DNA from: Escherichia coli
GTDB lineage: Bacteria > Pseudomonadota > Gammaproteobacteria > Enterobacterales > Enterobacteriaceae
Direction: 5' to 3' (one strand)
NCBI RefSeq assembly: GCF_051903065.1
Contig: NZ_CP178438.1
Length of the DNA: 64,000 bases
Below the pieces are notes generated by a model, which was not told the DNA's origin, did no database searches, and saw only the letters and a list, made by a program, of their open reading frames with translations. Numbering within the stretch: position 1 is the first letter of the stretch; every line of letters starts with the position of its first letter. Shown here piece by piece: positions 12,957 to 29,334 of the stretch. The position numbers and the translations under genes are program-made.

Positions 12957-13889
12957 ATGATCATCGTTACCGGCGGCGCGGGCTTTATCGGCAGCAACAT
13001 CGTTAAGGCCCTGAATGATAAAGGCATCACCGATATTCTGGTGGTGGACAATCTGAAAGACGGCACCAAGTTTGTGAACCTGGTGGATCTGGATATCGCG
13101 GACTATATGGATAAGGAAGACTTCCTGATCCAGATTATGGCTGGCGAAGAGTTCGGCGATGTCGAAGCGATTTTCCACGAAGGCGCGTGCTCTTCCACCA
13201 CCGAGTGGGATGGCAAGTATATGATGGATAACAACTATCAATACTCCAAAGAGCTGCTGCACTACTGTCTGGAGCGCGAAATCCCGTTCCTGTATGCCTC
13301 TTCCGCAGCCACCTACGGCGGACGCACCTCCGACTTTATTGAATCCCGCGAGTACGAAAAACCGTTGAACGTCTACGGTTACTCAAAATTCCTGTTTGAT
13401 GAATATGTTCGCCAAATCCTGCCTGAAGCGAACTCGCAGATTGTTGGCTTCCGCTATTTCAACGTTTATGGACCGCGTGAAGGCCATAAAGGCAGCATGG
13501 CGAGCGTCGCTTTCCATCTCAACACCCAGCTTAACAACGGTGAATCACCGAAGCTGTTTGAAGGTAGCGAGAACTTCAAACGCGACTTCGTCTATGTGGG
13601 CGACGTGGCTGATGTGAATCTGTGGTTCCTGGAAAATGGCGTTTCCGGCATCTTCAACCTCGGTACTGGTCGTGCGGAATCCTTCCAGGCTGTAGCTGAT
13701 GCTACGCTGGCTTATCACAAGAAAGGCCAGATCGAATACATTCCGTTCCCGGATAAACTGAAAGGCCGCTATCAGGCGTTCACTCAGGCAGATCTGACAA
13801 ATCTGCGCGCGGCGGGTTACGACAAACCGTTCAAAACCGTTGCTGAAGGTGTAACGGAATACATGGCCTGGCTGAATCGCGACGCATAA
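12957..13889 (+). CDS. hldD: ADP-L-glycero-D-manno-heptose 6-epimerase
   Basis: 310-aa [26 protein letters not shown]...; SDR/NAD-binding GxxGxxG. Confidence 0.95.
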
Positions 13890-13898
13890 GAGCTCTGC

Positions 13899-14945
13899 AT
13901 GAAAATACTGGTGATCGGCCCGTCTTGGGTTGGCGACATGATGATGTCGCAAAGTCTCTATCGCACGCTCCAGGCGCGCTATCCCCAGGCGATAATCGAC
14001 GTGATGGCACCGGCATGGTGCCGTCCGTTATTGTCGCGGATGCCGGAAGTTAACGAAGCCATTCCTATGCCGCTTGGTCACGGGGCGCTGGAAATTGGCG
14101 AACGCCGCAAGCTGGGTCATAGCCTGCGTGAAAAGCGCTACGACCGCGCCTACGTCTTACCTAACTCCTTCAAATCCGCATTAGTGCCTTTCTTCGCGGG
14201 TATTCCTCATCGCACCGGCTGGCGCGGCGAGATGCGCTACGGTTTACTCAACGATGTACGTGTGCTCGATAAAGAAGCCTGGCCGCTAATGGTGGAACGC
14301 TATGTGGCGCTGGCCTATGACAAAGGCGTGATGCGTACCGCACAAGATCTACCAAAACCGTTGTTATGGCCGCAATTGCAAGTGAGCGAAGGTGAAAAAT
14401 CATATACCTGTAATCAATTTTCGCTTTCATCAGAACGTCCGATGATTGGTTTTTGCCCGGGTGCGGAGTTTGGTCCGGCAAAACGCTGGCCACACTACCA
14501 CTATGCGGAACTGGCAAAGCAGCTGATTGATGAAGGTTATCAGGTGGTTCTGTTTGGCTCGGCGAAAGATCATGAAGCGGGCAATGAGATTCTTGCCGCT
14601 TTAAATACCGAGCAGCAGGCATGGTGTCGGAACCTGGCGGGGGAAACACAGCTTGATCAAGCGGTTATCCTGATTGCAGCCTGTAAAGCCATTGTCACTA
14701 ACGATTCTGGCCTGATGCACGTTGCGGCGGCGCTCAATCGTCCGCTGGTTGCCCTGTATGGTCCAAGTAGCCCGGACTTCACACCGCCGCTATCACATAA
14801 AGCGCGCGTGATCCGCCTGATTACCGGCTATCACAAAGTGCGTAAAGGTGACGCTGCGGAGGGTTATCACCAGAGCTTAATCGACATTACTCCCCAGCGC
14901 GTACTGGAAGAACTCAACGCGCTATTGTTACAAGAGGAAGCCTGA
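13899..14945 (+). CDS. waaF: ADP-heptose:LPS heptosyltransferase II (GT9)
   Basis: 348-aa ORF MKILVIGPSWVGDMMMSQSLYRTL...; GT9 family. Confidence 0.93.
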   Translation: MKILVIGPSWVGDMMMSQSLYRTLQARYPQAIIDVMAPAWCRPLLSRMPEVNEAIPMPLGHGALEIGERRKLGHSLREKRYDRAYVLPNSFKSALVPFFAGIPHRTGWRGEMRYGLLNDVRVLDKEAWPLMVERYVALAYDKGVMRTAQDLPKPLLWPQLQVSEGEKSYTCNQFSLSSERPMIGFCPGAEFGPAKRWPHYHYAELAKQLIDEGYQVVLFGSAKDHEAGNEILAALNTEQQAWCRNLAGETQLDQAVILIAACKAIVTNDSGLMHVAAALNRPLVALYGPSSPDFTPPLSHKARVIRLITGYHKVRKGDAAEGYHQSLIDITPQRVLEELNALLLQEEA

Positions 14946-14948
14946 CGG

Positions 14949-15905
14949 ATGCGGGTTTTGATCGTTAAAACATCGTCGATGGGCGATGTACTCCATACGT
15001 TGCCCGCACTCACTGATGCCCAGCAGGCAATCCCAGGGATTAAGTTTGACTGGGTGGTGGAAGAAGGGTTCGCACAGATTCCTTCCTGGCACGCCGCCGT
15101 TGAGCGAGTTATTCCTGTGGCAATACGTCGCTGGCGTAAAGCCTGGTTCTCGGCCCCCATAAAAGCGGAACGCAAAGCGTTTCGTGAAGCGCTACAAGCA
15201 GAGAACTATGACGCAGTTATCGATGCTCAGGGGCTGGTAAAAAGCGCGGCGCTGGTGACGCGTCTGGCGCATGGCGTAAAGCATGGAATGGACTGGCAAA
15301 CCGCTCGCGAACCTTTAGCCAGCCTGTTTTACAATCGTAAACATCATATTGCAAAACAGCAGCACGCCGTAGAACGCATCCGCGAACTTTTTGCCAAAAG
15401 TCTGGGCTATAGCAAACCGCAAACCCAGGGCGATTATGCTATCGCACAGCATTTTCTGACGAACCTGCCTACAGATGCTGGCGAATATGCCGTATTTCTT
15501 CATGCGACGACCCGTGATGATAAACACTGGCCGGAAGAACACTGGCGAGAATTGATTGGTTTACTGGCAGATTCAGGGATTCGCATTAAACTTCCGTGGG
15601 GTGCGCCGCATGAGGAAAAACGGGCGAAACGACTGGCGGAAGGATTTGCTTATGTTGAAGTATTGCCGAAGATGAGTCTGGAAGGTGTTGCCCGTGTGCT
15701 GGCCGGAGCGAAATTCGTGGTATCGGTAGACACTGGGTTAAGTCATTTAACTGCAGCACTGGATAGACCGAATATCACGGTTTATGGACCAACCGATCCG
15801 GGATTAATTGGTGGGTATGGGAAGAATCAGGTGGTTTGTAGGGCGCCAGATAAAGATCTTTCTCATCTGACTGCAGAAGCGGTATTTAATAAAATCAATT
15901 CCTGA
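14949..15905 (+). CDS. waaC: ADP-heptose:LPS heptosyltransferase I (GT9)
   Basis: 318-aa ORF MRVLIVKTSSMGDVLHTLPALTDAQQAIPGIKFDWVVEEGF...; GT9 family. Confidence 0.93.
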   Translation: MRVLIVKTSSMGDVLHTLPALTDAQQAIPGIKFDWVVEEGFAQIPSWHAAVERVIPVAIRRWRKAWFSAPIKAERKAFREALQAENYDAVIDAQGLVKSAALVTRLAHGVKHGMDWQTAREPLASLFYNRKHHIAKQQHAVERIRELFAKSLGYSKPQTQGDYAIAQHFLTNLPTDAGEYAVFLHATTRDDKHWPEEHWRELIGLLADSGIRIKLPWGAPHEEKRAKRLAEGFAYVEVLPKMSLEGVARVLAGAKFVVSVDTGLSHLTAALDRPNITVYGPTDPGLIGGYGKNQVVCRAPDKDLSHLTAEAVFNKINS

Positions 15906-15943
15906 TTAATACGTTCTATATTATTTAAGATGGTGGAGAAGCA

Positions 15944-17161
15944 ATGTTAACAGCCTCGCTGGCGCTACGTAATAAAGAAAGCTGGAAACCGTACTGGAAT
16001 AAAACGTTGGTATTCCTCTTTATTGCAACCTTTTTCCTTGATGGTATTACCCGTTATAAACACATCATATCCATACTAATGATTATTACGGTAATCTATC
16101 AAGTTTCTCGTGCTCCAGGAACATTTAAAGTACTCTATAAAAATAATCTTTTTTATAGTGTCCTGGTACTATCATTCATTCTTTTATATGCTACTTTCAT
16201 ATCACCTGATCTGAAAATCAGTTTTAAAGAATTCAGTAATACGGTGCTTAAAGGATTTTTGGCCTATAGTTTACTTATACCTGCATTATTAAAAGATGAA
16301 GATAATGAAAGCATTGGTAAAATTGTACTATACTCATTAGTTACCGGACTTGGCTTACGTTGTCTTGTTGAACTTATTCTTTATATTCAAGATTATAATA
16401 AAGGAATAATGCCATTTTCCACCTATGAACACCGTAGTATTTCCGATTCAATGGTGTTTCTGTTTCCAGCATTATTAAACCTTTGGCTTATCAAGAAAAC
16501 CTCTTATAAAATAGCATTCGTAATTTTTAGTGCAGTTTTCTTATTTCTGCTATTAGGAACGCTGTCTCGTGGTGCATGGCTGGCAGTATTCATAGTGACT
16601 CTGCTATGGTTAATCTTAAATCGTCAGTGGAAATTATTGATGCTGACTTCCATCGTTATTTCTGTTGCCGCAGCGGGTGTATTTACCTATAAAAGTGATC
16701 ATACCGGTAAAGACAGGCTTATTTATAAACTTCAACAGACCGACAGTTCTTATCGCTATACCAATGGTACACAAGGTACGGCGTGGACATTAATTATGGA
16801 AAATCCGCTTAAGGGATATGGCTACGGCGATGATATTTACCATGCAATATATAATAAGCGTGTCGTAGATTTTCCGTCATGGACATTCAGGCAATCAATT
16901 GGACCACACAACATTGTTTTGTCAATTTGGTTTGCAGCAGGTTTAGCTGGACTACTCGCTTTACTTTATCTGTATGGCTCTATTATCAAAGAGACAGCTA
17001 ATGCAACGTTTAAAACAGTTGTCGTCACTCCTTATAATGGTCAATTACTACTATTTTTAACGCTTGTAAGCTTTTATATTATTCGAGGTAACTTCGAGGA
17101 AGTTGATCTCAAACCAATTGGCTTGATTGTTGGTTTACTGTTAGCAATGCGGAATAAATAA
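15944..17161 (+). CDS. waaL: O-antigen ligase (Wzy_C family polytopic membrane protein)
   Basis: 405-aa, low-GC, highly hydrophobic ORF at the end of the hldD-waaFC operon. The sequence differs from the K-12 WaaL as I recall it; the start codon is uncertain. Confidence 0.8.
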   Translation: MLTASLALRNKESWKPYWNKTLVFLFIATFFLDGITRYKHIISILMIITVIYQVSRAPGTFKVLYKNNLFYSVLVLSFILLYATFISPDLKISFKEFSNTVLKGFLAYSLLIPALLKDEDNESIGKIVLYSLVTGLGLRCLVELILYIQDYNKGIMPFSTYEHRSISDSMVFLFPALLNLWLIKKTSYKIAFVIFSAVFLFLLLGTLSRGAWLAVFIVTLLWLILNRQWKLLMLTSIVISVAAAGVFTYKSDHTGKDRLIYKLQQTDSSYRYTNGTQGTAWTLIMENPLKGYGYGDDIYHAIYNKRVVDFPSWTFRQSIGPHNIVLSIWFAAGLAGLLALLYLYGSIIKETANATFKTVVVTPYNGQLLLFLTLVSFYIIRGNFEEVDLKPIGLIVGLLLAMRNK

Positions 17162-17167
17162 AAAAAA

Positions 17168-17197
17168 GCCTGCCTGACATTAAGTTCAGGCAGGCTC
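17168..17197. terminator. Bidirectional Rho-independent terminator between convergent waaL and the waaQ operon
   Basis: Perfect hairpin gcctgcctgac-attaagt-tcaggcaggc, preceded by an A-run and followed by T-rich sequence. Confidence 0.75.
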
Positions 17198-17214
17198 TTC
17201 AAATCCAATAATTT

Positions 17215-18357
17215 TTAACCAAACCAGTCTTGTATTTGTGCTTCAAAACGCTGAGTAACATGTTCCCAGCTATATTTTGAGAAAACAAAATTTCGGGCAT
17301 TTTTAGCAATTTGAGCTCTGTCAGCATCCGCCAAAACTCGCTTAATATCCGCGAGAATACTTTCAGATGTCATAGGCTCTGCAAGGTGATAGCCTGTAAT
17401 TCCTTCCAGAACAAACTCACTAATTCCACCTTTTTGACTGGCAAGTACTGGTTTACCTGCCGCCATCGCTTCAACAGCTACCATACAAAAAGCTTCTTCT
17501 ACCTGAGAAGGAACAACAACTAAATCTGCTAAACGGTAATAGTTATGCATCTGCTCTGGAGGCTGTCCACCCGCCATAATGCATTGCGCTCCAATAGCTT
17601 TCGCTGCATCCAGAACTTTTTTCTGATATTCAGCTTTTTCGCCTTTTTTACTGGCAAAAGGATCTCCGACAATCACCAGTTTGAGGTTATCTTGTATCTT
17701 ATTCAGCTGATTAAAAGCCTCCATAAGCATCAGGCAACCTTTATCTGGTGATATCCTTCCTGCAAATAATAACACGGTATCATTTGCATCAATGTTCAGT
17801 TTCTGCCTCAAATCTTCAGTATTATTTTGTTCATACGATTCAGAACAAAAACCATTAGGCACAATAGCAATATTTGCATCAGGCATTTTTTCCGAATAGA
17901 AATCGAAAAGAAACTGGCTAGGAACAATTATCTTTGCATTTTTGTCTAACTCACCTGGCTCGAAAGCATTATGAAGATGCATAACTAGCTGCGCCTGAGG
18001 GCTTCTGCTACGAATCTGTTTATACAGCTTCATGCTATTGTGGATAACAATAACAGAGTCTTTCGGATCAGTGTTTTTAGGTTGGGTATTTAAAATACGC
18101 TGAGAATATGGCACAGGATCAAGTCGAGTCCACTTTTGGAAAAGTCGTTTATAGACTCGACTAAAACCAATGTAGTGAATATCACAGTGATCATTTACTT
18201 TTGTGTAGGTTGGGTAACCTTCGTTTCGAATACAGGCGATAGTTACTGGAATCGAAAGTCTTTTTGCGACCTGATAAATCCATGTTTCAACCGCTGCAGC
18301 TCCTTTTGGCGGTATAGAAAATATTGGTGTGACGGTAAATATTATTTTTTTAATCAT
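17215..18357 (-). CDS. waaK: GT4-family glycosyltransferase, terminal outer-core transferase (WaaK-like, putative GlcNAc transferase)
   Basis: ORF 17215-18405; likely start MIKKIIFTVTPIF... (about 380 aa); C-terminal GT4 motif EAFCMVAVEAMAAGKPVLASQKGGISEFVLEGITGY. K-12 has a GT9 heptosyltransferase (WaaU) at this position, so the core type here is not K-12. Confidence 0.7.
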   Translation of the reverse strand: MIKKIIFTVTPIFSIPPKGAAAVETWIYQVAKRLSIPVTIACIRNEGYPTYTKVNDHCDIHYIGFSRVYKRLFQKWTRLDPVPYSQRILNTQPKNTDPKDSVIVIHNSMKLYKQIRSRSPQAQLVMHLHNAFEPGELDKNAKIIVPSQFLFDFYSEKMPDANIAIVPNGFCSESYEQNNTEDLRQKLNIDANDTVLLFAGRISPDKGCLMLMEAFNQLNKIQDNLKLVIVGDPFASKKGEKAEYQKKVLDAAKAIGAQCIMAGGQPPEQMHNYYRLADLVVVPSQVEEAFCMVAVEAMAAGKPVLASQKGGISEFVLEGITGYHLAEPMTSESILADIKRVLADADRAQIAKNARNFVFSKYSWEHVTQRFEAQIQDWFG

Positions 18358-18409
18358 TATTAGCCAACTCCAATATAATTTATAACACGTAATAAACACA
18401 TACAAAATA

Positions 18410-19219
18410 TTAGCTTATTTTTTCATAAACACACGGCTCTTCAATTTCGGATATTTTCATATAGGGAATAATATCATATTGAATTGCAGTATCGTCGGAT
18501 AAATTATAAATATTGATATCTTCTATATTTTCACGCATAAAACGGAAAAATGGTAAAATTTTGAATAAATCCCGAGTCAACTCTGAGGGCATAGGATTCT
18601 TATCTTCATCATAGAAACGCGAACAGCTACCCGTTAAATCAAGGCCTGAACAGATAATACGAGCATACTTCAGCGAATAGGCTATTTGGATTGCAGCAAA
18701 AGCAACGGTATGGCATGAACAATAACCGAGGTTAATATCCTTGCAAAAGCCAACCAGACGACCTTTTTTAGAAAAAGGTACAGAGATCAGGAGCTCTTTA
18801 TGAATTCGGCTCAAAATATTAAACTTGATCTTCTTGATCAATCCACCTTTTTCTCTGCGGTAAAATGAACGTAGTACCAGGCAGTTTTGAAGGATGTACC
18901 GCTTATCTTCTTCAGAAGCATGTTCATAAACGTCAACATTTACGATGGTATAACGACTTCTCTGGCTAAATTTATAAAAATCATCACGCCGTTGATGTAA
19001 AAAGCGAACATCGGTAAGTACATAAATATAGGGAATAATATTATGACTTAATAGATATTGTGCAGAACCATTGACAGCAATAACATCCCTTGTCTGCAGC
19101 ACTGACAATGGTGTTTTTTGCGATGTGGGGCCGGAAAGAAAAATAATAACATCATCAGCCGTTTTACTTTCTATCAGGTTTTCAACATCTTTTTTGTCAA
19201 TGTATCTAATATTCTTCAT
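18410..19219 (-). CDS. waaZ: LPS core biosynthesis protein WaaZ (KDO transferase-like)
   Basis: 269-aa low-GC ORF in the conserved waaY-waaZ position; assignment is by synteny more than motif. Confidence 0.65.
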   Translation of the reverse strand: MKNIRYIDKKDVENLIESKTADDVIIFLSGPTSQKTPLSVLQTRDVIAVNGSAQYLLSHNIIPYIYVLTDVRFLHQRRDDFYKFSQRSRYTIVNVDVYEHASEEDKRYILQNCLVLRSFYRREKGGLIKKIKFNILSRIHKELLISVPFSKKGRLVGFCKDINLGYCSCHTVAFAAIQIAYSLKYARIICSGLDLTGSCSRFYDEDKNPMPSELTRDLFKILPFFRFMRENIEDINIYNLSDDTAIQYDIIPYMKISEIEEPCVYEKIS

Positions 19220-19290
19220 GATAAACCTGTGAAATAAGAACTCCGCATAGAAATGTCCTGACGAAGACGTTTAAATGTAAGACTTTTACT

Positions 19291-19989
19291 TTATCGTGCT
19301 GGCTTCCCTTTCAAACGCCGCATAAGATTACGTATTTTTTTACGATAAACTAAAAGATAATAACCGAGATCTTTAACCTCATTCTTAATACCATAATGTC
19401 GCTCTAAATCAATACGATCTTTCGCTTTACGTTGTGCAGATGCCCGTTTTCCTGAAAGATCAATAATGCGTACTTCACCATTTTCAATAATAAAATTACC
19501 GCGGTGAGGATCACCAGATACCATACCGTGTTCGTGTAATGAACGAATTGATTGTTGAATTTTATTTTTTAGCGAATCATCAATATCGGGGATATCACAC
19601 AACTCTACGCCATCGATATATTCGATAAGCATGATATAAGTATGGACAAAACGTAATGTTTTCCGTTCTGCCAACAAATAAAAATCATTGAGAGAATGTA
19701 GCCCCTCGTTACGCACTTTTTGAGTTTGCTCAAAAAGGCGTTCATAATAATCTCCCTTTAAAAGAGATTTAAAGAAACGTTCGTTGCGTTTTACTTTAGG
19801 CGAAAAAACTTTAAGTATCAATTTACCGTAATCGGTATCAATAAGCATGACTTTTGTATCATCTATAGAACGAAAAACTTTGATGATATTAATATCATAA
19901 GAAAGAAAGTCATTTAATACATTGAGATACTTTGAGTTATTTTCATCGGTAAAAACAACTAAATCTTTGATTTTATTCTTCTGAATCAT
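19291..19989 (-). CDS. waaY: LPS core heptose(II) kinase
   Basis: 232-aa ORF with kinase-like HRGN motif (SGDPHRGNFI); position between waaZ and waaJ. Confidence 0.8.
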   Translation of the reverse strand: MIQKNKIKDLVVFTDENNSKYLNVLNDFLSYDINIIKVFRSIDDTKVMLIDTDYGKLILKVFSPKVKRNERFFKSLLKGDYYERLFEQTQKVRNEGLHSLNDFYLLAERKTLRFVHTYIMLIEYIDGVELCDIPDIDDSLKNKIQQSIRSLHEHGMVSGDPHRGNFIIENGEVRIIDLSGKRASAQRKAKDRIDLERHYGIKNEVKDLGYYLLVYRKKIRNLMRRLKGKPAR

Positions 19990-20006
19990 GTTAAACCAGT
20001 TAAATG

Positions 20007-21023
20007 TTATTTACGGTAATATTTTCGGCAAAGATAACACACTCCTGCAATGAGTCCTGAGATATAATGATGTTGCACTAACAGATGTTTATATCTTTTT
20101 TTGAATTCAATAATTGATTTTGCATCTCGTGGTGAGTCATCTTTCCAGGGGGATCTTTCTAAAGCTATTTTATAGTATTTTACCGATGGATAAATTGCCC
20201 ATTTGTGCCACGGCTTGGTGGCCCCAGTATAATGAATAAGAAGAGTATCCTCTTTTATCAACTCTTTATATTTTTGATGCGTTTTATCTTTTAACTCACT
20301 TTTTATTGTATATATAGTATTGAACTCACGTGGCAGGAATATTGTCATCCCTTTTAGTAGGACATTCATAACGTCCTGGTCAGGATACTTATAAATACTA
20401 TCTTTACTCATAAGAATAGACAGTGCTTTTTCGGTTAGTTTTGCTTCTGTCCATTTTTTTAGGTCTAAGTAAACGACACCAGAATTAAAATACTGCCCCC
20501 GAAGTTCAGGATCAGATAATCTGACTACCGCCTTTTCCTGCATTGGGTCTACATCCCTGACTACTGCAGCCACCGCTCCATTAAACTCTAAATGCAATAG
20601 TTGACTAATATCTCCCTTACAAACTACATCTGCATCAAGATAAAGCAAACGATCAAGAGTTAAACCCAATAATTGAAATGCAAATAAACGGAAGTACATT
20701 GCTCTTGACCAGACCTGTGTACAAGGCAAGCACTGGAGCTTATCAGTGTTAATTCTATATAACGTGATTCTTAATTGGTATTGCTCTGCAAGCTTTGCAA
20801 CTTTTTGAAAAAAAGCATCATTATAAACATCAGCAATAATATAAAAATCAAGATTAATATGTCGATTATTTAGGACAATTGATGTGATGGAAACACCTAC
20901 ACCATCAAGATAATTAGCATCGACACCATAGGCAACATTTAAACATTCACAAGTATTTATATTAGCCAGCCGAAAATCCCAGGCTTTAACTTTATCTATC
21001 TCTATGGCAGGAAATGAGTCCAC
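20007..21023 (-). CDS. waaJ: GT8-family LPS outer-core 1,2-glycosyltransferase
   Basis: 338-aa ORF with GT8 motifs (YLDADVVC, FNSGVVYLDLKKW, DQDVMNVLL, HYTGATKPW). Confidence 0.8.
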   Translation of the reverse strand: MDSFPAIEIDKVKAWDFRLANINTCECLNVAYGVDANYLDGVGVSITSIVLNNRHINLDFYIIADVYNDAFFQKVAKLAEQYQLRITLYRINTDKLQCLPCTQVWSRAMYFRLFAFQLLGLTLDRLLYLDADVVCKGDISQLLHLEFNGAVAAVVRDVDPMQEKAVVRLSDPELRGQYFNSGVVYLDLKKWTEAKLTEKALSILMSKDSIYKYPDQDVMNVLLKGMTIFLPREFNTIYTIKSELKDKTHQKYKELIKEDTLLIHYTGATKPWHKWAIYPSVKYYKIALERSPWKDDSPRDAKSIIEFKKRYKHLLVQHHYISGLIAGVCYLCRKYYRK

Positions 21024-21062
21024 AATGCTACCCTTATATCATTACTTTATAGTTTCCCAGTT

Positions 21063-22082
21063 TTAATGCTTTATCTTTTCAATAAAATAAAAAAGATAGT
21101 TGCTAAACCCTTTTAGATATCTATGTTTTTTAAGCATATGTTTTGCGCTATATCTTAATTGATTGCTATTATTCGGTTTCAGCAACGCCGTATTCTTCCA
21201 TGGCGAAGCATTTTTTGCCTCCATAAATGCTTGTGATACAGGATAATCCCAGGCCCAATCATGCCAGGGCTTGGTTGGCCCGATATAATGGATAAAAATA
21301 GTATCGTTGGTAATTGGGTTTATAAAGTTATCTTTTAGTTGATAATTTAAGCTAAACTGGGTGTTATATTTAATATCAGCGAAAATAAGTTTATCTGCCA
21401 GCAACATATTTAATACATCCTGATCAGGATGTGTTATTTTTTTGATTATTTCTGGCTCATTTAGCATTGCAATGGCTCGTGTAGAAACCTGCTGAGCCGC
21501 CCATTTGGCAGTATTAATCAATAAAAAACCGGAGTTAAAGTAACCTTTAGCAATTCCCGCAACACCTAACGAATGGGCGCGTTTTTCCCACCAGTCAGCT
21601 TGCCCTTCAGAAACAACCATTGCGACTTTATCGTCAGGAAATGAGAATTTAATTAGTGGCTCAATAGTCCCCTGACAAATGATATCTGCATCCAGATAAA
21701 GGACTTTAGCCGCCTTATTAATAAAGTAATCTGCAATAACAAAACGGAAATATATTGCATGAGTCCAGTTCTTTGTGCTAGGCAATGAGCGTAGTCGGTC
21801 ACCATTAATCAGATATATTTTTATTCTGGTTTTATACTGTAACGCTAGGGCATCAAAATACTTACGATCATCATCACCAAAATAATCAGTAAAAATGTGG
21901 AAACACAACCGACTTCCTTCATTATACTTTAATATTGAAGCAATCGAAATTCCGCAACCAAATAGAAAGTTTTTGTCAGTTCCATAAGCGATGTCCAGAC
22001 AAAGATTTTCCGTTTCTACTTTATGATTATAATCAATAACTGAATTTAGAAACTCAGTTTCCTGGAATAATACCTGCTGCAT
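21063..22082 (-). CDS. waaI: GT8-family LPS outer-core 1,3-glycosyltransferase
   Basis: 339-aa ORF with GT8 motifs (YLDADIIC, FNSGFLLINTAKW, DQDVLNMLL, HYIGPTKPW); also known as waaO. Confidence 0.8.
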   Translation of the reverse strand: MQQVLFQETEFLNSVIDYNHKVETENLCLDIAYGTDKNFLFGCGISIASILKYNEGSRLCFHIFTDYFGDDDRKYFDALALQYKTRIKIYLINGDRLRSLPSTKNWTHAIYFRFVIADYFINKAAKVLYLDADIICQGTIEPLIKFSFPDDKVAMVVSEGQADWWEKRAHSLGVAGIAKGYFNSGFLLINTAKWAAQQVSTRAIAMLNEPEIIKKITHPDQDVLNMLLADKLIFADIKYNTQFSLNYQLKDNFINPITNDTIFIHYIGPTKPWHDWAWDYPVSQAFMEAKNASPWKNTALLKPNNSNQLRYSAKHMLKKHRYLKGFSNYLFYFIEKIKH

Positions 22083-23161
22083 TATTTCCTCCGGGAAATA
22101 GCAGAAATAATTATATTATGTAATCTATCGTAATACTTCAATTGATAAAACTTATCGATCGACGCAGGAATTTTTTCATGTTCGATATGAATTTCACCTG
22201 CTATATATTTATTTAGAAGAGTTACAAAACCAGCAATATCTCCCGGTTGATACAGATGGCCATTGACATCAGATTGAATAATGTCAGCAGGCCCGGAGAC
22301 ACAATCGGCACTAATACAAGGAATCCCCCATGATAAGGCTTCAAGCAGGGTCATTGGGAAACCTTCAAAAGATGACGTGAGCAGTAACGCACTCACTTTT
22401 TTAATATCTTGCTGGACCAATTCCCAGGGATGTTGTTGCCAACCATACCAGTCAATTCGATTATCAATATTTAGTTCTCTACTATAAGCCTGGCATTTTT
22501 CGAAATCGGAACCATCACCCAATACATGGAGTTTCCAGTTACCTTGCGCTTGTGATAAGCCATCAAACAGGTCTTTAACCCTCTTCTGGCCTTCAAATTT
22601 CATACGCCCAACATAAATGAATGTTGCCGTTTCGCCTTCCCCGGGTGCAGGAATGACTGAATTTTTCGCCTCGACGGGATTAAAAATAACGTTTATTGTC
22701 GATTCTGGTACACCCCGGCTAATCATTTGCCGTTTAATACCAGAGCTGATGGCTAAATGATAGTCGGCACAGGTGATATATTCAGCATGTTTTTTATGAT
22801 CTAAAGAAAAATGCGGCCATGAAAATACAGGTACATCAATCCCCGATTTTTTACGAGCTTTGGACGCATACAAACACGAGATCACGTCAATACAAATAAC
22901 AACATCTGGCTGATAATCCTGAAGCCATTTGCTTAAAGCATGAATATGTTTCGCGCGACGCAAAAAACCTAAGCGAATATTGGAAAATGAACAAGAGTAC
23001 TTAATATCTTCCAGCCACCCCTTATCCATTTTGTCATTACGACAAAAGAAAAACATTTCACTTTGGATATGTTGTTGCCTGAAGGTAGTAATAACATCAC
23101 GAATGACTGTTTCCATGCCGCCAAAACCAGAAACAGCTTCGCCAATAAAGGCTATTTTCAT
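22082..23161 (-). CDS. waaB: GT4-family LPS 1,6-galactosyltransferase
   Basis: 359-aa ORF MKIAFIGEAVSGFGGMETV... with C-terminal GT4 motif SSFEGFPMTLLEALSWGIPCIS. Confidence 0.85.
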   Translation of the reverse strand: MKIAFIGEAVSGFGGMETVIRDVITTFRQQHIQSEMFFFCRNDKMDKGWLEDIKYSCSFSNIRLGFLRRAKHIHALSKWLQDYQPDVVICIDVISCLYASKARKKSGIDVPVFSWPHFSLDHKKHAEYITCADYHLAISSGIKRQMISRGVPESTINVIFNPVEAKNSVIPAPGEGETATFIYVGRMKFEGQKRVKDLFDGLSQAQGNWKLHVLGDGSDFEKCQAYSRELNIDNRIDWYGWQQHPWELVQQDIKKVSALLLTSSFEGFPMTLLEALSWGIPCISADCVSGPADIIQSDVNGHLYQPGDIAGFVTLLNKYIAGEIHIEHEKIPASIDKFYQLKYYDRLHNIIISAISRRK

Positions 23162-23174
23162 AATTACATTCCAG

Positions 23175-24155
23175 CTAAATATTTAAGCAAAACAATTTAA
23201 CAAGTAAATACTTATAATAATAAGAAATGGCTTTCCAATATTTTCCTTCTAACCAAAAAACTTTAGACTTTAACCTAATCTCACTTGATGATGGAGCTAG
23301 TTTTCTTTTATAGTTCTTCCATGGGGAATTTGAAAAATAATGATCAAAATTTTGCGCTCTAAATATTTTGTACCATGGTTTATTCGGAGTTACATAATGC
23401 ATTATAATTGTGTTTGGCAAGTTTTTTTGCTCTTCATCACATCGTACTGACAATGTTGTCTTATTATTGTACTTGTTATTAAGGTAATGTACTCGTCCAT
23501 TAAGTAAAATATTAAGCACATCCTGATCTGCATATCTATATACTTTCCCACTGTTGATCATCTCTAAAGCTTTTTGTGTTATATTATGTTTTTTCCATGC
23601 GCTGGTATTAATAAGCATAACCCCGGCATTAAAATAATCCACAAACTCAATGCCATAATCTAATTTTTTTACACGTTCTTGCATTTCTGGTGAGTCTGGA
23701 ATTACACATGCAATATTAGCATTTAAATTATAATCAACCAGTTCATCTAAATGGCTATTACATATGACATCACAGTCAAGATAAAGTATATTATTTATTT
23801 TATCATCAATAACTTCTGGGATTAAGAAACGTAAACATGTTGATAAAGGAATACCAAGAACTAATGTATCCGGATTAATGTCAAATTTATCAGTTATATA
23901 ATATACAGATATTGATGTATGAGGACCTTCTAGCTCGTAAAAAGCTGAACACTCTTTTTCTTCTATGCCTGATATAAGAAGGTGAAAATGAAGGTTAATA
24001 TGACTATTGTTGGATATAATTGAATATAATGCAACGCCTGCTGGCATTATGAATTCATAATCAAAGCATAGTGCAATATGTAAATGTTTAACATATGACA
24101 GTTCGTTTTGGAATAAATCTTGCCTCTTAGCAACGAAATTTCTATATTTCAACAA
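23175..24155 (-). CDS. GT8-like glycosyltransferase occupying the waaS position (very AT-rich)
   Basis: 326-aa ORF with GT8 motifs (YLDCDVICN, FNAGVMLINTSAW, DQDVLNILL, HYVTPNKPW), between waaP and waaB. I cannot confirm from memory whether it is orthologous to K-12 WaaS. Confidence 0.6.
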   Translation of the reverse strand: MLKYRNFVAKRQDLFQNELSYVKHLHIALCFDYEFIMPAGVALYSIISNNSHINLHFHLLISGIEEKECSAFYELEGPHTSISVYYITDKFDINPDTLVLGIPLSTCLRFLIPEVIDDKINNILYLDCDVICNSHLDELVDYNLNANIACVIPDSPEMQERVKKLDYGIEFVDYFNAGVMLINTSAWKKHNITQKALEMINSGKVYRYADQDVLNILLNGRVHYLNNKYNNKTTLSVRCDEEQKNLPNTIIMHYVTPNKPWYKIFRAQNFDHYFSNSPWKNYKRKLAPSSSEIRLKSKVFWLEGKYWKAISYYYKYLLVKLFCLNI

Positions 24156-24187
24156 TTTTAGAATCCCTTACTGTAATAAAATATTAT

Positions 24188-24985
24188 TTACAAGTTTTTT
24201 CTTATTGTTCTTTCTTCTATTTTTTTTGCTTTAATTTTTGCCTTTTTAAGTAAATCAGTCTCAAGTTTAAAAATATCGCGTAAAGGCATCCCAAAATAAA
24301 CCTTCATAAATCGCCAGATATCTCTCTGCGTCAGACCAATATTCATTGATGAGAAATACAAACCAATCAAATCTTTATCGCGCCAACGACGTGGAACGCG
24401 CGTGCGAAGCTGCGCCCGGTGCAGGTCAATTACCGAAATTTTTAACTCCTCTTCCTTACCGGAAAAAGGCAAGTGCAGCAGGAAATGACAGATATAACAG
24501 TCACGGTGGTTAATGCCCGCAGCATGCATATCGCGCACCATCGTCGCGACACGCTTAATAAGCATACGCTTTACGCGAACATCTGGTGGGTTGGTCGCCC
24601 AGTCAGCACAGTAATCTTCCAGACTGATGGTTGGTGTCAGATCTTCGGTAATAATAAATGAAGTTCTGGTCAGCGGATTCATGCCTTTTTCGCCAAATGC
24701 CACCCCATACATAGTATCAACGCCGACATCCCGCAGTCGATGAATCGCATTCCATTCGCGGTCTGCGCCTAATACTGGCATCCGCAATGAGAGTAAATTT
24801 TTGATTATCTCTTTCAGAGTCGTGCCGCGATGCCATTTGAGAAAATAGCTTTTGCCCGCCATTTCAAAGCGCAGAGTACGGCGAGTTTCCAGTTCACGAA
24901 ATACCTCACCCTGCAAGGTTTTAACTTCCTCAAAAGGATCTTTACCGCGCCATAACGTGGCAAACGGCTCTTTAAGTTCAACCAT
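24188..24985 (-). CDS. waaP: LPS core heptose(I) kinase
   Basis: Likely start [21 protein letters not shown]...; kinase-like fold; conserved position. Confidence 0.9.
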
Positions 24986-26102
24986 CCAGACCACCCGTTA
25001 TGATATCCGCCGCTTTCTCTGGCAGACTGTATAAATCTTGTGTATCAGCATAATGTCGCGCATTTTCCGCCCAGGCCTGGCGCAATGAAGATTGCGTTAA
25101 CGCTTTGCGTAAAATCTCATTCAATGTTTCCTGGCGGAATGGCTCAGCAATAGCCTCGCCGCAATTGGCGTCGACAATATAATGCGCATAGCCGCAAACG
25201 GCAGTTGTTAGTACCGGTAATCCTGCAGTAATCGCTTCCAGCAGCACAATTCCCGCCGCTTCCTGGTAGGCAGGATGCAGTAATAAATCCGCCGCCGCCA
25301 TTAATTCCGAGACATCGTTGCGCCCCGAGAAGAAGTGAACATTACTGCGCACGCCGCGTTTTTCTGCCAGTGCCTCAAATTTTCGCGGTTTATCCTGCCC
25401 AACAACATATAGCAATGTGTTGTGGCGCAGCGAATCCGGTAACGAAGCAAGTGCTTCAATGGAACGATCGACACCTTTACGCGTGAAGTCTGAACCGACC
25501 TGCAACAATAAATATTGTTGTTCGGTTATTCCATTCTTCTTACGGAAGATTTCACGGCTATTGGCTGGCTGCTGGCTATATTTACGATCAGGATAAATCC
25601 CCGGTGGCAGAATATGAAAACGCTCCACTTCAGTCTGATAATGTTTCTGGAAATCGGCGATTTGCTTATCTGTCAGCATCAGCAGCTGTGTCGGCTTGCC
25701 CTGTTCGAAGGTTGCCCGCTCAAAGGCGGCATAATGGCGATAACGTGACGTCAGGCGATAGAAAAAGCCTTTTTCCTGCGCTACTTTCTCGGCATAACAA
25801 ACATCAGCGGCATAATAAACGTCCAGCCCCGGCATTTTATTAAATCCAACGACTTTATCGACGGGATGTTCGCGTAAATGTTTTTGCACCCAGGCAAAAT
25901 ACTCCGCATTGCGCCCGTGATTGGTATGCGATTTAACCGGCACTTTGATCAGTTCAAATACATCAGGGCATTCGCCTTCCCACGACTGGGCATAAACCCG
26001 AACATGATGACCTCGGGCGGCGACTGTCTGAGCAATACGCATAAAATCGCGCTGCAAACCGCCAAAGGGAAAATATTTATATAAACAAAAAGCAACGATC
26101 AT
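24978..26102 (-). CDS. waaG: LPS glucosyltransferase I (GT4)
   Basis: 374-aa [40 protein letters not shown]...; GT4. Confidence 0.93.
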
Positions 26103-27157
26103 AACGACGTACCTGTCGTGGAGGAGGGCAGTAATTTATCGACAGCAGCAATGACATCTGCCGCCGGAATAACCGAAAGATACATCTCATTTCGGTCACG
26201 CTGATCGCGCGTTGGCATTTCCCGGTAATCTCCCGCCCAGAATTGAATCATGTTATTTGACCAGGGACGCCAGAAAATATGATCTGTTGCGCCAAACAGC
26301 GATATCAGCGGCGTATTAACTGCAGCGGCAATATGCGCCGGTGCGGAATCAACGCCAATAAACAGCTGCGCATGATCGATTAACGCACCAAGTTCCGGGA
26401 AGGTCACCTTTCCAGCCAGCGCCGTTACTGGTGGCGTCTGGCATCCCTGCGCAATTTCATTGACGCAGGCCAGATCGTCTTTATCTGGGCCGGACGTCAG
26501 AACGACTTCATAACCACGAGCATGTAAGGCATCAATCACAGCGGAAAACTTGGCGTTGTCCCAGCATTTGAAGATTTGCCGCGCCGTAGGTTGGATAACC
26601 ACATAATTTTGTCCAACACCAGCGTGATCAAGTTCGCGACGCATACGTTTCCAGCTTGCAGGCGGGTAACTCATGGTTGTCTGCTTCACCAACGAATCAA
26701 GTCCCAATGGCGTCAGCACGGATAAGTTACTTTCCACCACATTTCCACCCTGCAACGGCACCAAATGGGTGAAACTATTACGCCAAAAAGCAGACTGCCG
26801 ATGATGATAATCCTGGGAAATTTTCACACGGGCATTTAATAAGCGAACCAGTATAGCAACCATCCATTGATCGGTAAGATTGACGATAAGGTCATACTTA
26901 TTGGCACGTAATACCTTGATGAGATGAAAAAAGTTGGCAATTTTTTCTGAGGCTTTTGCTTTTTTATTTTTTATGCCGTAGAGCGCGTTAATCTCTGGAT
27001 TTTCAGACAGGATCGGGATGGTGTCCTGATAAAGCAGCACATCGATTTTTGCGTCAGGGTAATTTTTTTTCAGCGAACTAATGACGGGAGTAGTTAATAA
27101 CATATCCCCATGAAAACGCATCTTAATGAGCAAAATTCTTCGAAATGGCTTATCCAC
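26099..27157 (-). CDS. waaQ: LPS heptosyltransferase III (GT9)
   Basis: 352-aa ORF MDKPFRRILLIKMRFHGDMLLTTPVISSLKKNYPDAKIDVL...; GT9; first gene of the long core operon. Confidence 0.9.
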   Translation of the reverse strand: MDKPFRRILLIKMRFHGDMLLTTPVISSLKKNYPDAKIDVLLYQDTIPILSENPEINALYGIKNKKAKASEKIANFFHLIKVLRANKYDLIVNLTDQWMVAILVRLLNARVKISQDYHHRQSAFWRNSFTHLVPLQGGNVVESNLSVLTPLGLDSLVKQTTMSYPPASWKRMRRELDHAGVGQNYVVIQPTARQIFKCWDNAKFSAVIDALHARGYEVVLTSGPDKDDLACVNEIAQGCQTPPVTALAGKVTFPELGALIDHAQLFIGVDSAPAHIAAAVNTPLISLFGATDHIFWRPWSNNMIQFWAGDYREMPTRDQRDRNEMYLSVIPAADVIAAVDKLLPSSTTGTSL

Positions 27158-27206
27158 AAGTAACTCTTTTTGTTGAGATTATCCGATTAAGGTGAAGCAG
27201 AAAAAG

Positions 27207-27245
27207 CACGCTACCGCCCCAGGCTCAACAGCTACCTGAATACTG
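27207..27245 (-). promoter_or_regulatory. JUMPstart element with ops site (GGCGGTAGCGTG) in the waaQ operon leader (RfaH-dependent antitermination)
   Basis: Minus strand reads cagtattcaggtagctgttgagcctggggcggtagcgtg; the 12-nt ops consensus is exact at 27207-27218 (forward cacgctaccgcc). Confidence 0.85.
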
Positions 27246-27569
27246 ATACCGCACTGATATTGACGCGCTAGTGTATCACTTCTTTCGCGGCAATCCGACC
27301 CGAATGATTTTTAAGCACATTGTTGATTTTCAATAAAGAAATCAATCAAATAAAATCATTAGCAACCATATTCTTTCACTGTTGCTCTGCGATTCCTTCC
27401 TGCACGTACAGCAGAAATCAATGAATCGCATAAAAATACAAAAAAAGTATAGATGTTCAGCAAGAATTGGCGGGTAAATTGCTATTTAAGTCAAAAACGG
27501 GAAAAGTAATGGTAATGCCACAGCTAAATACATAGAATCCCCAGCACATCCATAAGTCAGCTATTTACT

Positions 27570-29334
<1,765 letters not shown>

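Follow-up and report, generated by a model that had tools for sequence, protein, structure and literature searches.

The open reading frame located between waaP and waaB in the analysed stretch of Escherichia coli chromosomal DNA (64,000 nt; hereafter the window) is, judging from its sequence and gene neighborhood, wabA, which belongs to the R2 lipopolysaccharide core type of this species. Our overall reading, to which we assign a probability of about 0.85, is that wabA is an R2-specific, RfaH-dependent gene of glycosyltransferase family 8 (GT8), whose product is predicted to transfer an alpha-linked hexose to lipid A-core. The feature is real but ordinary: the gene already bears a name, its core type is known, and its RefSeq annotation as a GT8 gene is correct. 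Slightly unusual is the presence of a minor wabA allele inside a three-way mosaic locus. The coordinates of the relevant features are given in Table 1.

Table 1. Features of the waa locus in the window, with the predicted functional sites of WabA.
Feature	Position	Strand	Description
wabA CDS	23175..24155	(-)	326 aa, TTG start, TAG stop; GT8 glycosyltransferase
wabA RBS AAGGGA and TTG start	24153..24170	(-)	read from sequence
Predicted DxD metal/UDP-binding motif D127-C128-D129	23769..23777	(-)	aligns with LgtC D103-x-D105
D210-Q211-D212, predicted sugar-transfer centre	23520..23528	(-)	equivalent to LgtC D188/Q189 ('DQD/DED' segment)
H253...K259-P260-W261, predicted third metal ligand and diphosphate-binding Lys	23373..23399	(-)	LgtC H244...K250-P-W
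GT8 C-terminal domain, residues 267-320	23196..23357	(-)	PF08437; helices in the AlphaFold2 model
waaP (Hep I kinase)	24188..24985	(-)	NCBIfam RfaP, 475 bits; RefSeq coordinates; 32-bp gap to wabA
waaB (alpha-1,6-galactosyltransferase)	22082..23161	(-)	NCBIfam, 600 bits; 93% to K-12 WaaB; 13-bp gap
waaO, GT8 gene	21063-22082		97% identical to K-12 WaaO
waaR, GT8 gene	20007-21023		93% identical to K-12 WaaR
JUMPstart/ops element in the waaQ leader; RfaH loading site	27207..27245	(-)	Rfam RF01707, 55.2 bits (gathering threshold 35)
ops sequence in the waaQ leader, GGCGGTAG	27211-27218
Strong intrinsic terminator after waaK, end of operon	17163..17200	(-)	15-bp stem followed by a T-run

The list of open reading frames and the translation showed that the wabA frame runs through all of its codons without interruption. 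A Shine-Dalgarno sequence, AAGGGA, lies 8 nt upstream of the TTG start codon, and both elements are kept in the alleles of E. coli strains ESY001 and E69. The homologue of Citrobacter T1.2D-1 also starts with TTG, and in the proteins of Citrobacter NCU1 and Pseudocitrobacter Met is found first at the aligned start position. The waa region is 100% identical in strain SC516 and about a dozen other strains, and in SC516 RefSeq gives the same 981-nt CDS, annotated as 'glycosyltransferase family 8 protein'. The interior of the gene is free of competing ORFs of at least 50 aa in both strands and of Rfam matches. The ORF is not a product of chance, as follows from the 981-nt stop-free frame at 30% GC, a profile match with an E value of 1e-48 and a dN/dS ratio of 0.12-0.23. 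The location of the ORF between waaP and waaB, given in a preliminary description of this DNA, agrees with the ORF list, the profile matches and the RefSeq coordinates. The same description called it the most AT-rich gene of the cluster, which also holds: the GC content of wabA is 29.7% (GC3 22.9%), the lowest among the 14 waa genes, and the next lowest is that of waaY (33.0%), in a window of 49.2% GC. The K-12 waaS gene, which occupies the same slot, has a GC content of 26.8%.

On the minus strand of the window the locus reads waaQ-G-P-[GT8]-B-O-R-Y-Z-K, and on the plus strand waaL-C-F. Every protein of the K-12 MG1655 waa region was compared with the proteins of the window. The window WaaF, C, Z, Y, R, O, B, P, G and A are 85-100% identical to their K-12 counterparts (88-97% for WaaB, O, R, Y and Z), and WaaQ is 73% identical. 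The window WaaK matches the N-acetylglucosaminyltransferase profile (725 bits), and WaaL is of the Salmonella-type RfaL (652 bits), giving no alignment to K-12 WaaL. The R2 core type has been known since 1998. We take the name wabA to originate from Heinrichs et al. (1998), with F632 (GenBank AF019375) as the R2 prototype strain. The published R2 arrangement has been described as 'a hybrid of K-12 and Salmonella'. In a recent study, wabA is named as an R2 gene (Trofimova et al., 2025; PMC13293308), the supplementary gene order of the R2 strain ECOR11 is given as ...waaO, waaB, wabA, waaP, waaG..., and strains ESY001 and NCTC86 are typed as R2 (PMC13293308); both of these strains carry wabA. 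The assignment of the ORF to wabA, a name that the preliminary description had overlooked, is based on its slot, the R2 type of the locus, an R2-like distribution and the R2-typed carriers. In R2-type E. coli, WabA is found in the same waaP-waaB slot, in the company of waaK and a Salmonella-type waaL, and the window WabA is 92% identical at the amino acid level to WabA of the R2-typed ESY001. The window gene represents a minor allele, the major R2 allele being 94.4% identical in nucleotide sequence.

The window differs from the major R2 type in being a mosaic, with waaQ-G-P of the R1/R3 'common' type and a K-12-like waaO. Four blocks were delimited by sliding-window comparison. From 15000 to 20700, the window and the major R2 type are 97-100% identical. 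In the segment 20700-22500, which comprises the 5' end of waaR, waaO and the 3' end of waaB, identity to K-12 is 96-99%, compared to only 83-90% for the major R2 type. The segment 22500-24200 (the 5' part of waaB, and wabA) is R2-like, with 92-98% identity. Finally, the segment 24200-27500 (waaP, G, Q) is 94-100% identical to the R1/R3/ST131 K-12-type common module (98-100% from about position 24600), and reaches only 69-86% identity with major R2 or MG1655. These identities place the recombination junction at or just upstream of wabA.

The signals found at its two ends suggest that wabA is the fourth gene of a 10-gene RfaH-type operon, waaQ-G-P-wabA-B-O-R-Y-Z-K (Table 1). A promoter scan inside the waaQ operon yielded no more matches than were obtained in shuffled sequence, and therefore no internal wabA promoter is claimed.

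The WabA protein matches Pfam family PF01501 (Glyco_transf_8) with 164.8 bits (cut-off 24.3, E 3.6e-48), residues 26-263 spanning profile positions 1-251 of 253. The match of residues 267-320 to the GT8 C-terminal family PF08437 is marginal (26.1 bits, cut-off 23). The motifs D127-x-D129, F175-N-A-G178, D210-Q-D212, H253 and K259-P-W261 were found to be invariant in an alignment of 43 homologues, and likewise in every core GT8 paralogue of E. coli and Salmonella. When the PDB was searched by sequence, Neisseria LgtC came out best (E 4e-20), and its catalytic residues line up with those of WabA. The 43-homologue alignment was also used to build an AlphaFold2 model, which reached a pLDDT of 92.4 and a pTM of 0.91. 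Its top Foldseek matches were WbbM, LgtC and GlyE (E ~1e-17 to 1e-14), followed by further GT8 proteins (3TZT, LARGE1 and glycogenin) and then by the related catalytic domain of UGGT, with a probability of 1.0 throughout. Sequence and model together indicate that WabA is a GT8 enzyme of the GT-A type with an intact metal and nucleotide-sugar site, in agreement with the full GT8 signatures that the ORF had been said to carry.

LgtC (PDB 1GA8/1G9R/1SS9), an alpha-1,4-galactosyltransferase and the structural prototype of bacterial GT8 enzymes, is similar to WabA in its GT-A fold and DxD motif, and the equivalents of its residues Q189, H244 and K250 are present in WabA as Gln, His and Lys. The comparison of LgtC with the WabA model gave a Foldseek E value of ~1e-17 and TM scores of 0.65/0.75. 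However, the two proteins are only 26% identical and the C-terminal membrane-binding tail of LgtC is different; the acceptor of LgtC is lactose on LOS. In the AlphaFold2 model the C-terminal domain of WabA forms two long basic/aromatic helices (residues 290-302 and 306-322). By analogy with WaaJ, this domain is presumed to be a membrane-association region.

WabA is a third GT8 paralogue of the locus, as had been proposed; the two neighbors that had been taken for waaI and waaJ equivalents turned out to be WaaO and WaaR rather than Salmonella-type WaaI/WaaJ, given their identity to the K-12 glucosyltransferases (Table 1). WabA has the GT8 catalytic and GT8C domains, the motifs and the operon in common with the WaaO/WaaI and WaaR/WaaJ/WaaT/WaaW enzymes, but differs from both groups in a loop that reads GIPLSTCLRF in WabA and W-S/T-x-A-x-Y-F-R in the other proteins. 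Its closest relatives in the K-12 MG1655 waa region are WaaR (31%) and WaaO (28%). Against the WaaI/WaaO equivalog NF011718 of NCBIfam, WabA scored 176.1 bits, below the cut-off of 461, compared to 576.5 bits for the window WaaO. In a neighbor-joining (NJ) tree, WabA and its homologues formed a clade apart from the HexII (WaaO/WaaI) and HexIII (WaaR/J/T/W) enzymes, to which WabA is 25-31% identical. Placement of WabA in either the WaaI/O or the WaaR/J/T/W group was rejected on the basis of the NCBIfam cut-off and the tree. Some database records label WabA as 'lipopolysaccharide 1,3-galactosyltransferase', which is a mislabel.

The wabA gene was found in 502 of the 5426 complete E. coli genomes, always as a single chromosomal copy. 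The R2 waaL-waaK pair is present in 500 and K-12 waaS in 1031 of the same 5426 genomes; the wabA and waaS counts agree with the published frequencies of the R2 (8.15%) and K-12 (18.4%) core types. The window allele was matched at at least 99% identity in 16/5426 genomes. Exceptions to the R2 distribution are hybrids such as strain LHM10-1, in which wabA is accompanied by waaU. A scan of genome contigs with the WabA protein retrieved two close relatives only (E. coli E69 and E. albertii), and the wider distribution was drawn from the protein database and contig look-ups. Homologues located directly after waaP occur in Salmonella enterica, including subsp. salamae (61-62% identity), Citrobacter (62-64%) and Pseudocitrobacter (58-60%), and the E. 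albertii homologue is found in the same slot. Distant relatives (~43%) exist in Gilliamella/Orbaceae in another gene context. Between E. coli and Salmonella, WabA is 62% identical, compared to 64% for WaaB, 67% for WaaY and 70% for WaaZ. The divergence of WabA is thus close to that of its neighbors, which argues for long travel with the cluster rather than a recent insertion.

Three other explanations of the gene as such were considered. It is very improbable that wabA is a decaying relic that has lost its function and is carried along in the operon as an AT-rich hitchhiker. The gene is annotated as frameshifted in NCTC86 (an A8-to-A7 homopolymer change), one of the 30 sampled copies is fragmented, and no wabA phenotype is known. 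Nevertheless, wabA is intact in the window and is annotated as one intact gene in 29 of the 30 sampled copies, its slot is conserved across four genera, and from Escherichia to Gilliamella no catalytic residue varies. Comparison with the major R2 allele (ESY001) gave a dN/dS ratio of 0.23; the alleles of E. coli E69 and E. albertii, which are 79% identical, gave 0.12-0.16, with dS up to 0.96. Purifying selection is thus clear, and the pseudogene idea was dismissed on the grounds of dN/dS and motif conservation. Hardly any credence can be given to WabA as a redundant back-up that duplicates the linkage and acceptor of WaaO or of WaaR. The three proteins do belong to one family and are encoded in one operon, but WabA is only ~27% identical to WaaO and WaaR, and it has long been conserved as a clade of its own, and all loci examined also have genes of the WaaO and WaaR types beside it. 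This long independent conservation argues for a distinct specificity. The preliminary description had not decided between an orthologue of K-12 waaS and a distinct transferase. The findings settle this in favor of the latter, and orthology, with WaaS being a diverged GT8 protein, is close to impossible. Both genes lie between waaP and waaB, their products are similar in length (326 and 311 aa), and each gene is the most AT-rich of its own cluster. However, no similarity was detected between WabA and K-12 WaaS: in place of a full-length match of high identity, the best BLASTP alignment covers 35 aa with an E value of 4.4. In the Pfam search K-12 WaaS showed neither a GT8 domain nor any other significant match, and in Gilliamella ESL0443 a WaaS-like and a WabA-like gene are adjacent in one region. 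The orthology was discarded on account of the BLASTP result and the absence of a GT8 domain in WaaS. Position between waaP and waaB is by itself insufficient to make wabA a member of waaS, and waaS is the wrong name for this gene. The single A lost from the A8 run in NCTC86 could be either a sequencing error or a genuine slip.

GT8 enzymes are retaining and, with Mn2+, use UDP-alpha-D-sugars to form alpha-linked products; those acting in core synthesis modify lipid A-core on the cytoplasmic side of the inner membrane. In the proposed mechanism, WabA would bind a UDP-hexose and Mn2+ via D127-x-D129 and H253, use the D210-Q211-D212 centre in an LgtC-like manner and, probably docked to the inner membrane from the cytoplasmic side by its helical C-terminal domain, move one alpha-linked hexose onto nascent lipid A-core before flipping by MsbA. 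The GT8 sequence does not reveal the donor sugar, since such close paralogues as WaaO (Glc) and WaaI (Gal), members of the same clade with roughly 55% identity, differ in their donor. Net charge and pI, compared across the GT8 paralogues as a hint of an anionic (Kdo) acceptor, gave no discriminating signal.

The product of WabA would be an extra, non-stoichiometric branch. The R2 core oligosaccharide has the composition Glc3-GlcNAc-Gal-Hep3-Kdo (PMC7504096), and its five outer-core sugars (Glc3, Gal, GlcNAc) are paired one-to-one with the predicted WaaG, WaaO, WaaR, WaaB and WaaK. As no outer-core sugar is left unassigned, the WabA product would be additional and sub-stoichiometric, and the addition of a non-stoichiometric side-branch sugar by WabA is plausible.

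As to the site of this branch, WaaZ is the Kdo III transferase, and the donors would be dTDP-L-Rha for WaaS and a UDP-hexose for WabA. K-12 WaaS is a rhamnosyltransferase of the Kdo region that requires Kdo III (PMC4651636). An identical WabA is found with an R2 end (waaK and R2 waaL) in the window and with a K-12 end (waaU and K-12-type waaL) in LHM10-1. More generally, wabA follows waaP in loci with waaK and a Salmonella-type waaL (E. coli R2, Salmonella) as well as in loci ending with waaU or a waaU-like gene and a K-12-type waaL (LHM10-1, Citrobacter, Pseudocitrobacter), and the Pseudocitrobacter locus has no waaB. The waaZ gene is present in every wabA locus examined, and the R1 and R3 loci have neither waaZ nor any gene in the wabA slot, although this co-occurrence is confounded by the linkage of the whole K-12/R2/Salmonella-type gene block. 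The varied distal ends, the missing waaB, the company of waaZ and the presence of WaaS in the same slot point to the inner part of the core, away from the distal outer core. K-12 WaaS (RfaS) and WabA are alike in slot, extreme AT-richness, waaZ co-occurrence and in being encoded by core-type-specific accessory genes; sharing no sequence similarity, and WaaS not being a GT8 protein, they are analogous rather than homologous. By this analogy, WabA is probably a decorator of the inner-core Kdo region.

A more specific proposal, which we put forward tentatively and at somewhat less than even odds, is that WabA is a UDP-Gal:Kdo II alpha-1,7-galactosyltransferase acting non-stoichiometrically. The alpha-1,7-linked Gal on Kdo II would then be the R2 counterpart of the WaaS-dependent rhamnose of K-12. 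Vinogradov and co-workers are said to have described, in 1999, a minor glycoform with Gal on Kdo in the R2 strain F576. An alpha-Gal linkage fits the retaining chemistry of GT8 enzymes, and a published supplementary annotation table places alpha-1,7-Gal/Kdo II under 'waaS' (PMC13293308). The main rival, which we find rather unlikely, is that WabA attaches a hexose to heptose or in the outer core, not to Kdo, and that this residue is non-stoichiometric or has so far escaped notice. To our knowledge, every core GT8 enzyme characterised in enterobacteria glycosylates an outer-core hexose, which makes an outer-core acceptor the default for the family; WabA also has the same C-terminal domain as WaaO/R/I/J/T/W, and automated database names read '1,3-galactosyltransferase'. 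On the other hand, the outer-core sugars of the R2 composition all have assigned enzymes, WabA falls in a clade separate from the HexII/HexIII enzymes and far below the WaaI/O equivalog cut-off, and the gene is found with different distal outer-core ends, with or without waaB. In the accessible literature, no biochemical or mutant test of WabA was found; searches for wabA and for R2 combined with Kdo and Gal returned only the typing study (PMC13293308) and papers on R2 composition. WabA is among the few E. coli core glycosyltransferases without a demonstrated reaction in accessible papers.

A broader and doubtful extension of the Kdo II proposal is that the slot downstream of waaP constitutes an exchangeable 'Kdo-decoration cassette', with WabA, as a Kdo II alpha-1,7-galactosyltransferase, being its ancestral occupant. 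The unrelated WaaS (K-12) and WabA (R2) would provide alternative non-stoichiometric substituents on the WaaZ-dependent Kdo region. The divergence of WabA (~62% identity to Salmonella), which tracks that of waaB, waaY and waaZ, would on this proposal make it the original holder of this slot in the Escherichia/Salmonella/Citrobacter lineage. If this is true, many Salmonella, Citrobacter and E. albertii strains make a core glycoform that is absent from textbook structures.

The carriers of wabA comprise ~9% of sequenced E. coli and many Salmonella, and a substituent in the Kdo region could affect recognition by phages, antibodies or antimicrobial peptides. Because the distal end that accompanies wabA can be of the R2 or the K-12 type, typing based on waaK/waaU, by PCR or in silico, can mis-predict the full core. 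Strain LHM10-1, a wabA carrier, is typed as 'K-12' in a published table (PMC13293308).

The waa locus of the window (13800-28900) is a three-way mosaic. Its waaP-G-Q block (24200-27500) shows 94-100% identity to the module of R1/R3/ST131-type strains, rising to 98-100% from about position 24600, and just 69-86% identity to typical R2 (ESY001) or to K-12 strain MG1655. The segment 20700-22500, comprising the 5' end of waaR, waaO and the 3' end of waaB, is K-12-like (96-99%), while the remainder of the locus is R2-like. One of the junctions lies at wabA, the GT8 glycosyltransferase gene located between waaP and waaB, or just upstream of it.

At an identity of at least 99%, the wabA gene of the window was matched in 16 genomes, compared to only 10 for its waaL-waaK segment. 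In strain LHM10-1, the WabA, WaaB and WaaO proteins are identical to those of the window's strain, and the distal end is of K-12 type (waaZ-waaU-waaL). The LPSTyper table (PMC13293308) gives LHM10-1 as 'K-12'; the strain is a hybrid carrying wabA that was overlooked by typing based on waaY-waaU.

Coordinates of wabA-related loci and of the ops 8-mers
Feature	Locus	Coordinates	Content or basis
Gilliamella sp. ESL0443	L015	379-1374 and 7894-10964	WaaS-like, WabA-like and further GT8 genes
Pseudocitrobacter	L014	8182-11086	waaP, wabA-like gene directly after it, then HexII-type GT8 gene
Salmonella enterica wabA homologue	L003	1-951	waaP-waaB slot
Salmonella enterica wabA homologue	L004	7905-8873	waaP-waaB slot
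Salmonella enterica wabA homologue	L005		waaP-waaB slot
E. coli LHM10-1	L016, NZ_CP037903	2074-13258	wabA-carrying locus with K-12-type distal end
E. coli NCTC86 (Escherich's strain, R2)	L008	18263-20336	wabA and waaB
ops 8-mer GGCGGTAG	window	20525, 27211, 38112, 46472, 63976	all minus strand; sequence match

The exact WabA protein encoded in the window (23175-24155) is present on 642 contigs. In some sources it goes under the name 'lipopolysaccharide 1,3-galactosyltransferase' or 'UDP-D-galactose:(glucosyl)LPS alpha-1,3-D-galactosyltransferase'. These unsupported names were carried over from the HexII enzyme WaaI; WabA reaches 176 bits, where the WaaI/WaaO equivalog model requires 461.

A homologue with 61-62% identity occupies the waaP-waaB slot in Salmonella enterica, including subsp. 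salamae, and its 90%-identity cluster has 4127 member sequences. Gene callers frequently shorten it to 290 or 316 aa or report it as 'partial', apparently because its start codon is not ATG or because contigs break within the AT-rich stretch; it is also found at full length (326 aa). To our knowledge, no known Salmonella core structure explains this enzyme. The Pseudocitrobacter locus with a wabA-like gene lacks waaB. A single Gilliamella sp. ESL0443 region contains an ORF resembling K-12 WaaS (29% identity), a WabA-like gene (43%) and three more GT8 genes; WaaS-like and WabA-like enzymes are therefore able to coexist.

In NCTC86, the annotation marks wabA as well as waaB as frameshifted. The change in wabA, an A8 run short of one A, may reflect either a sequencing error or a genuine slip. 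The homopolymer runs in the window's copy are A7, A6, A7 and T6.

The ops 8-mer GGCGGTAG occurs five times in the window, compared to 1.15 occurrences expected; five occurrences were reached in 2 of 100 shuffles. Only the site at 27211 falls within a recognised JUMPstart.
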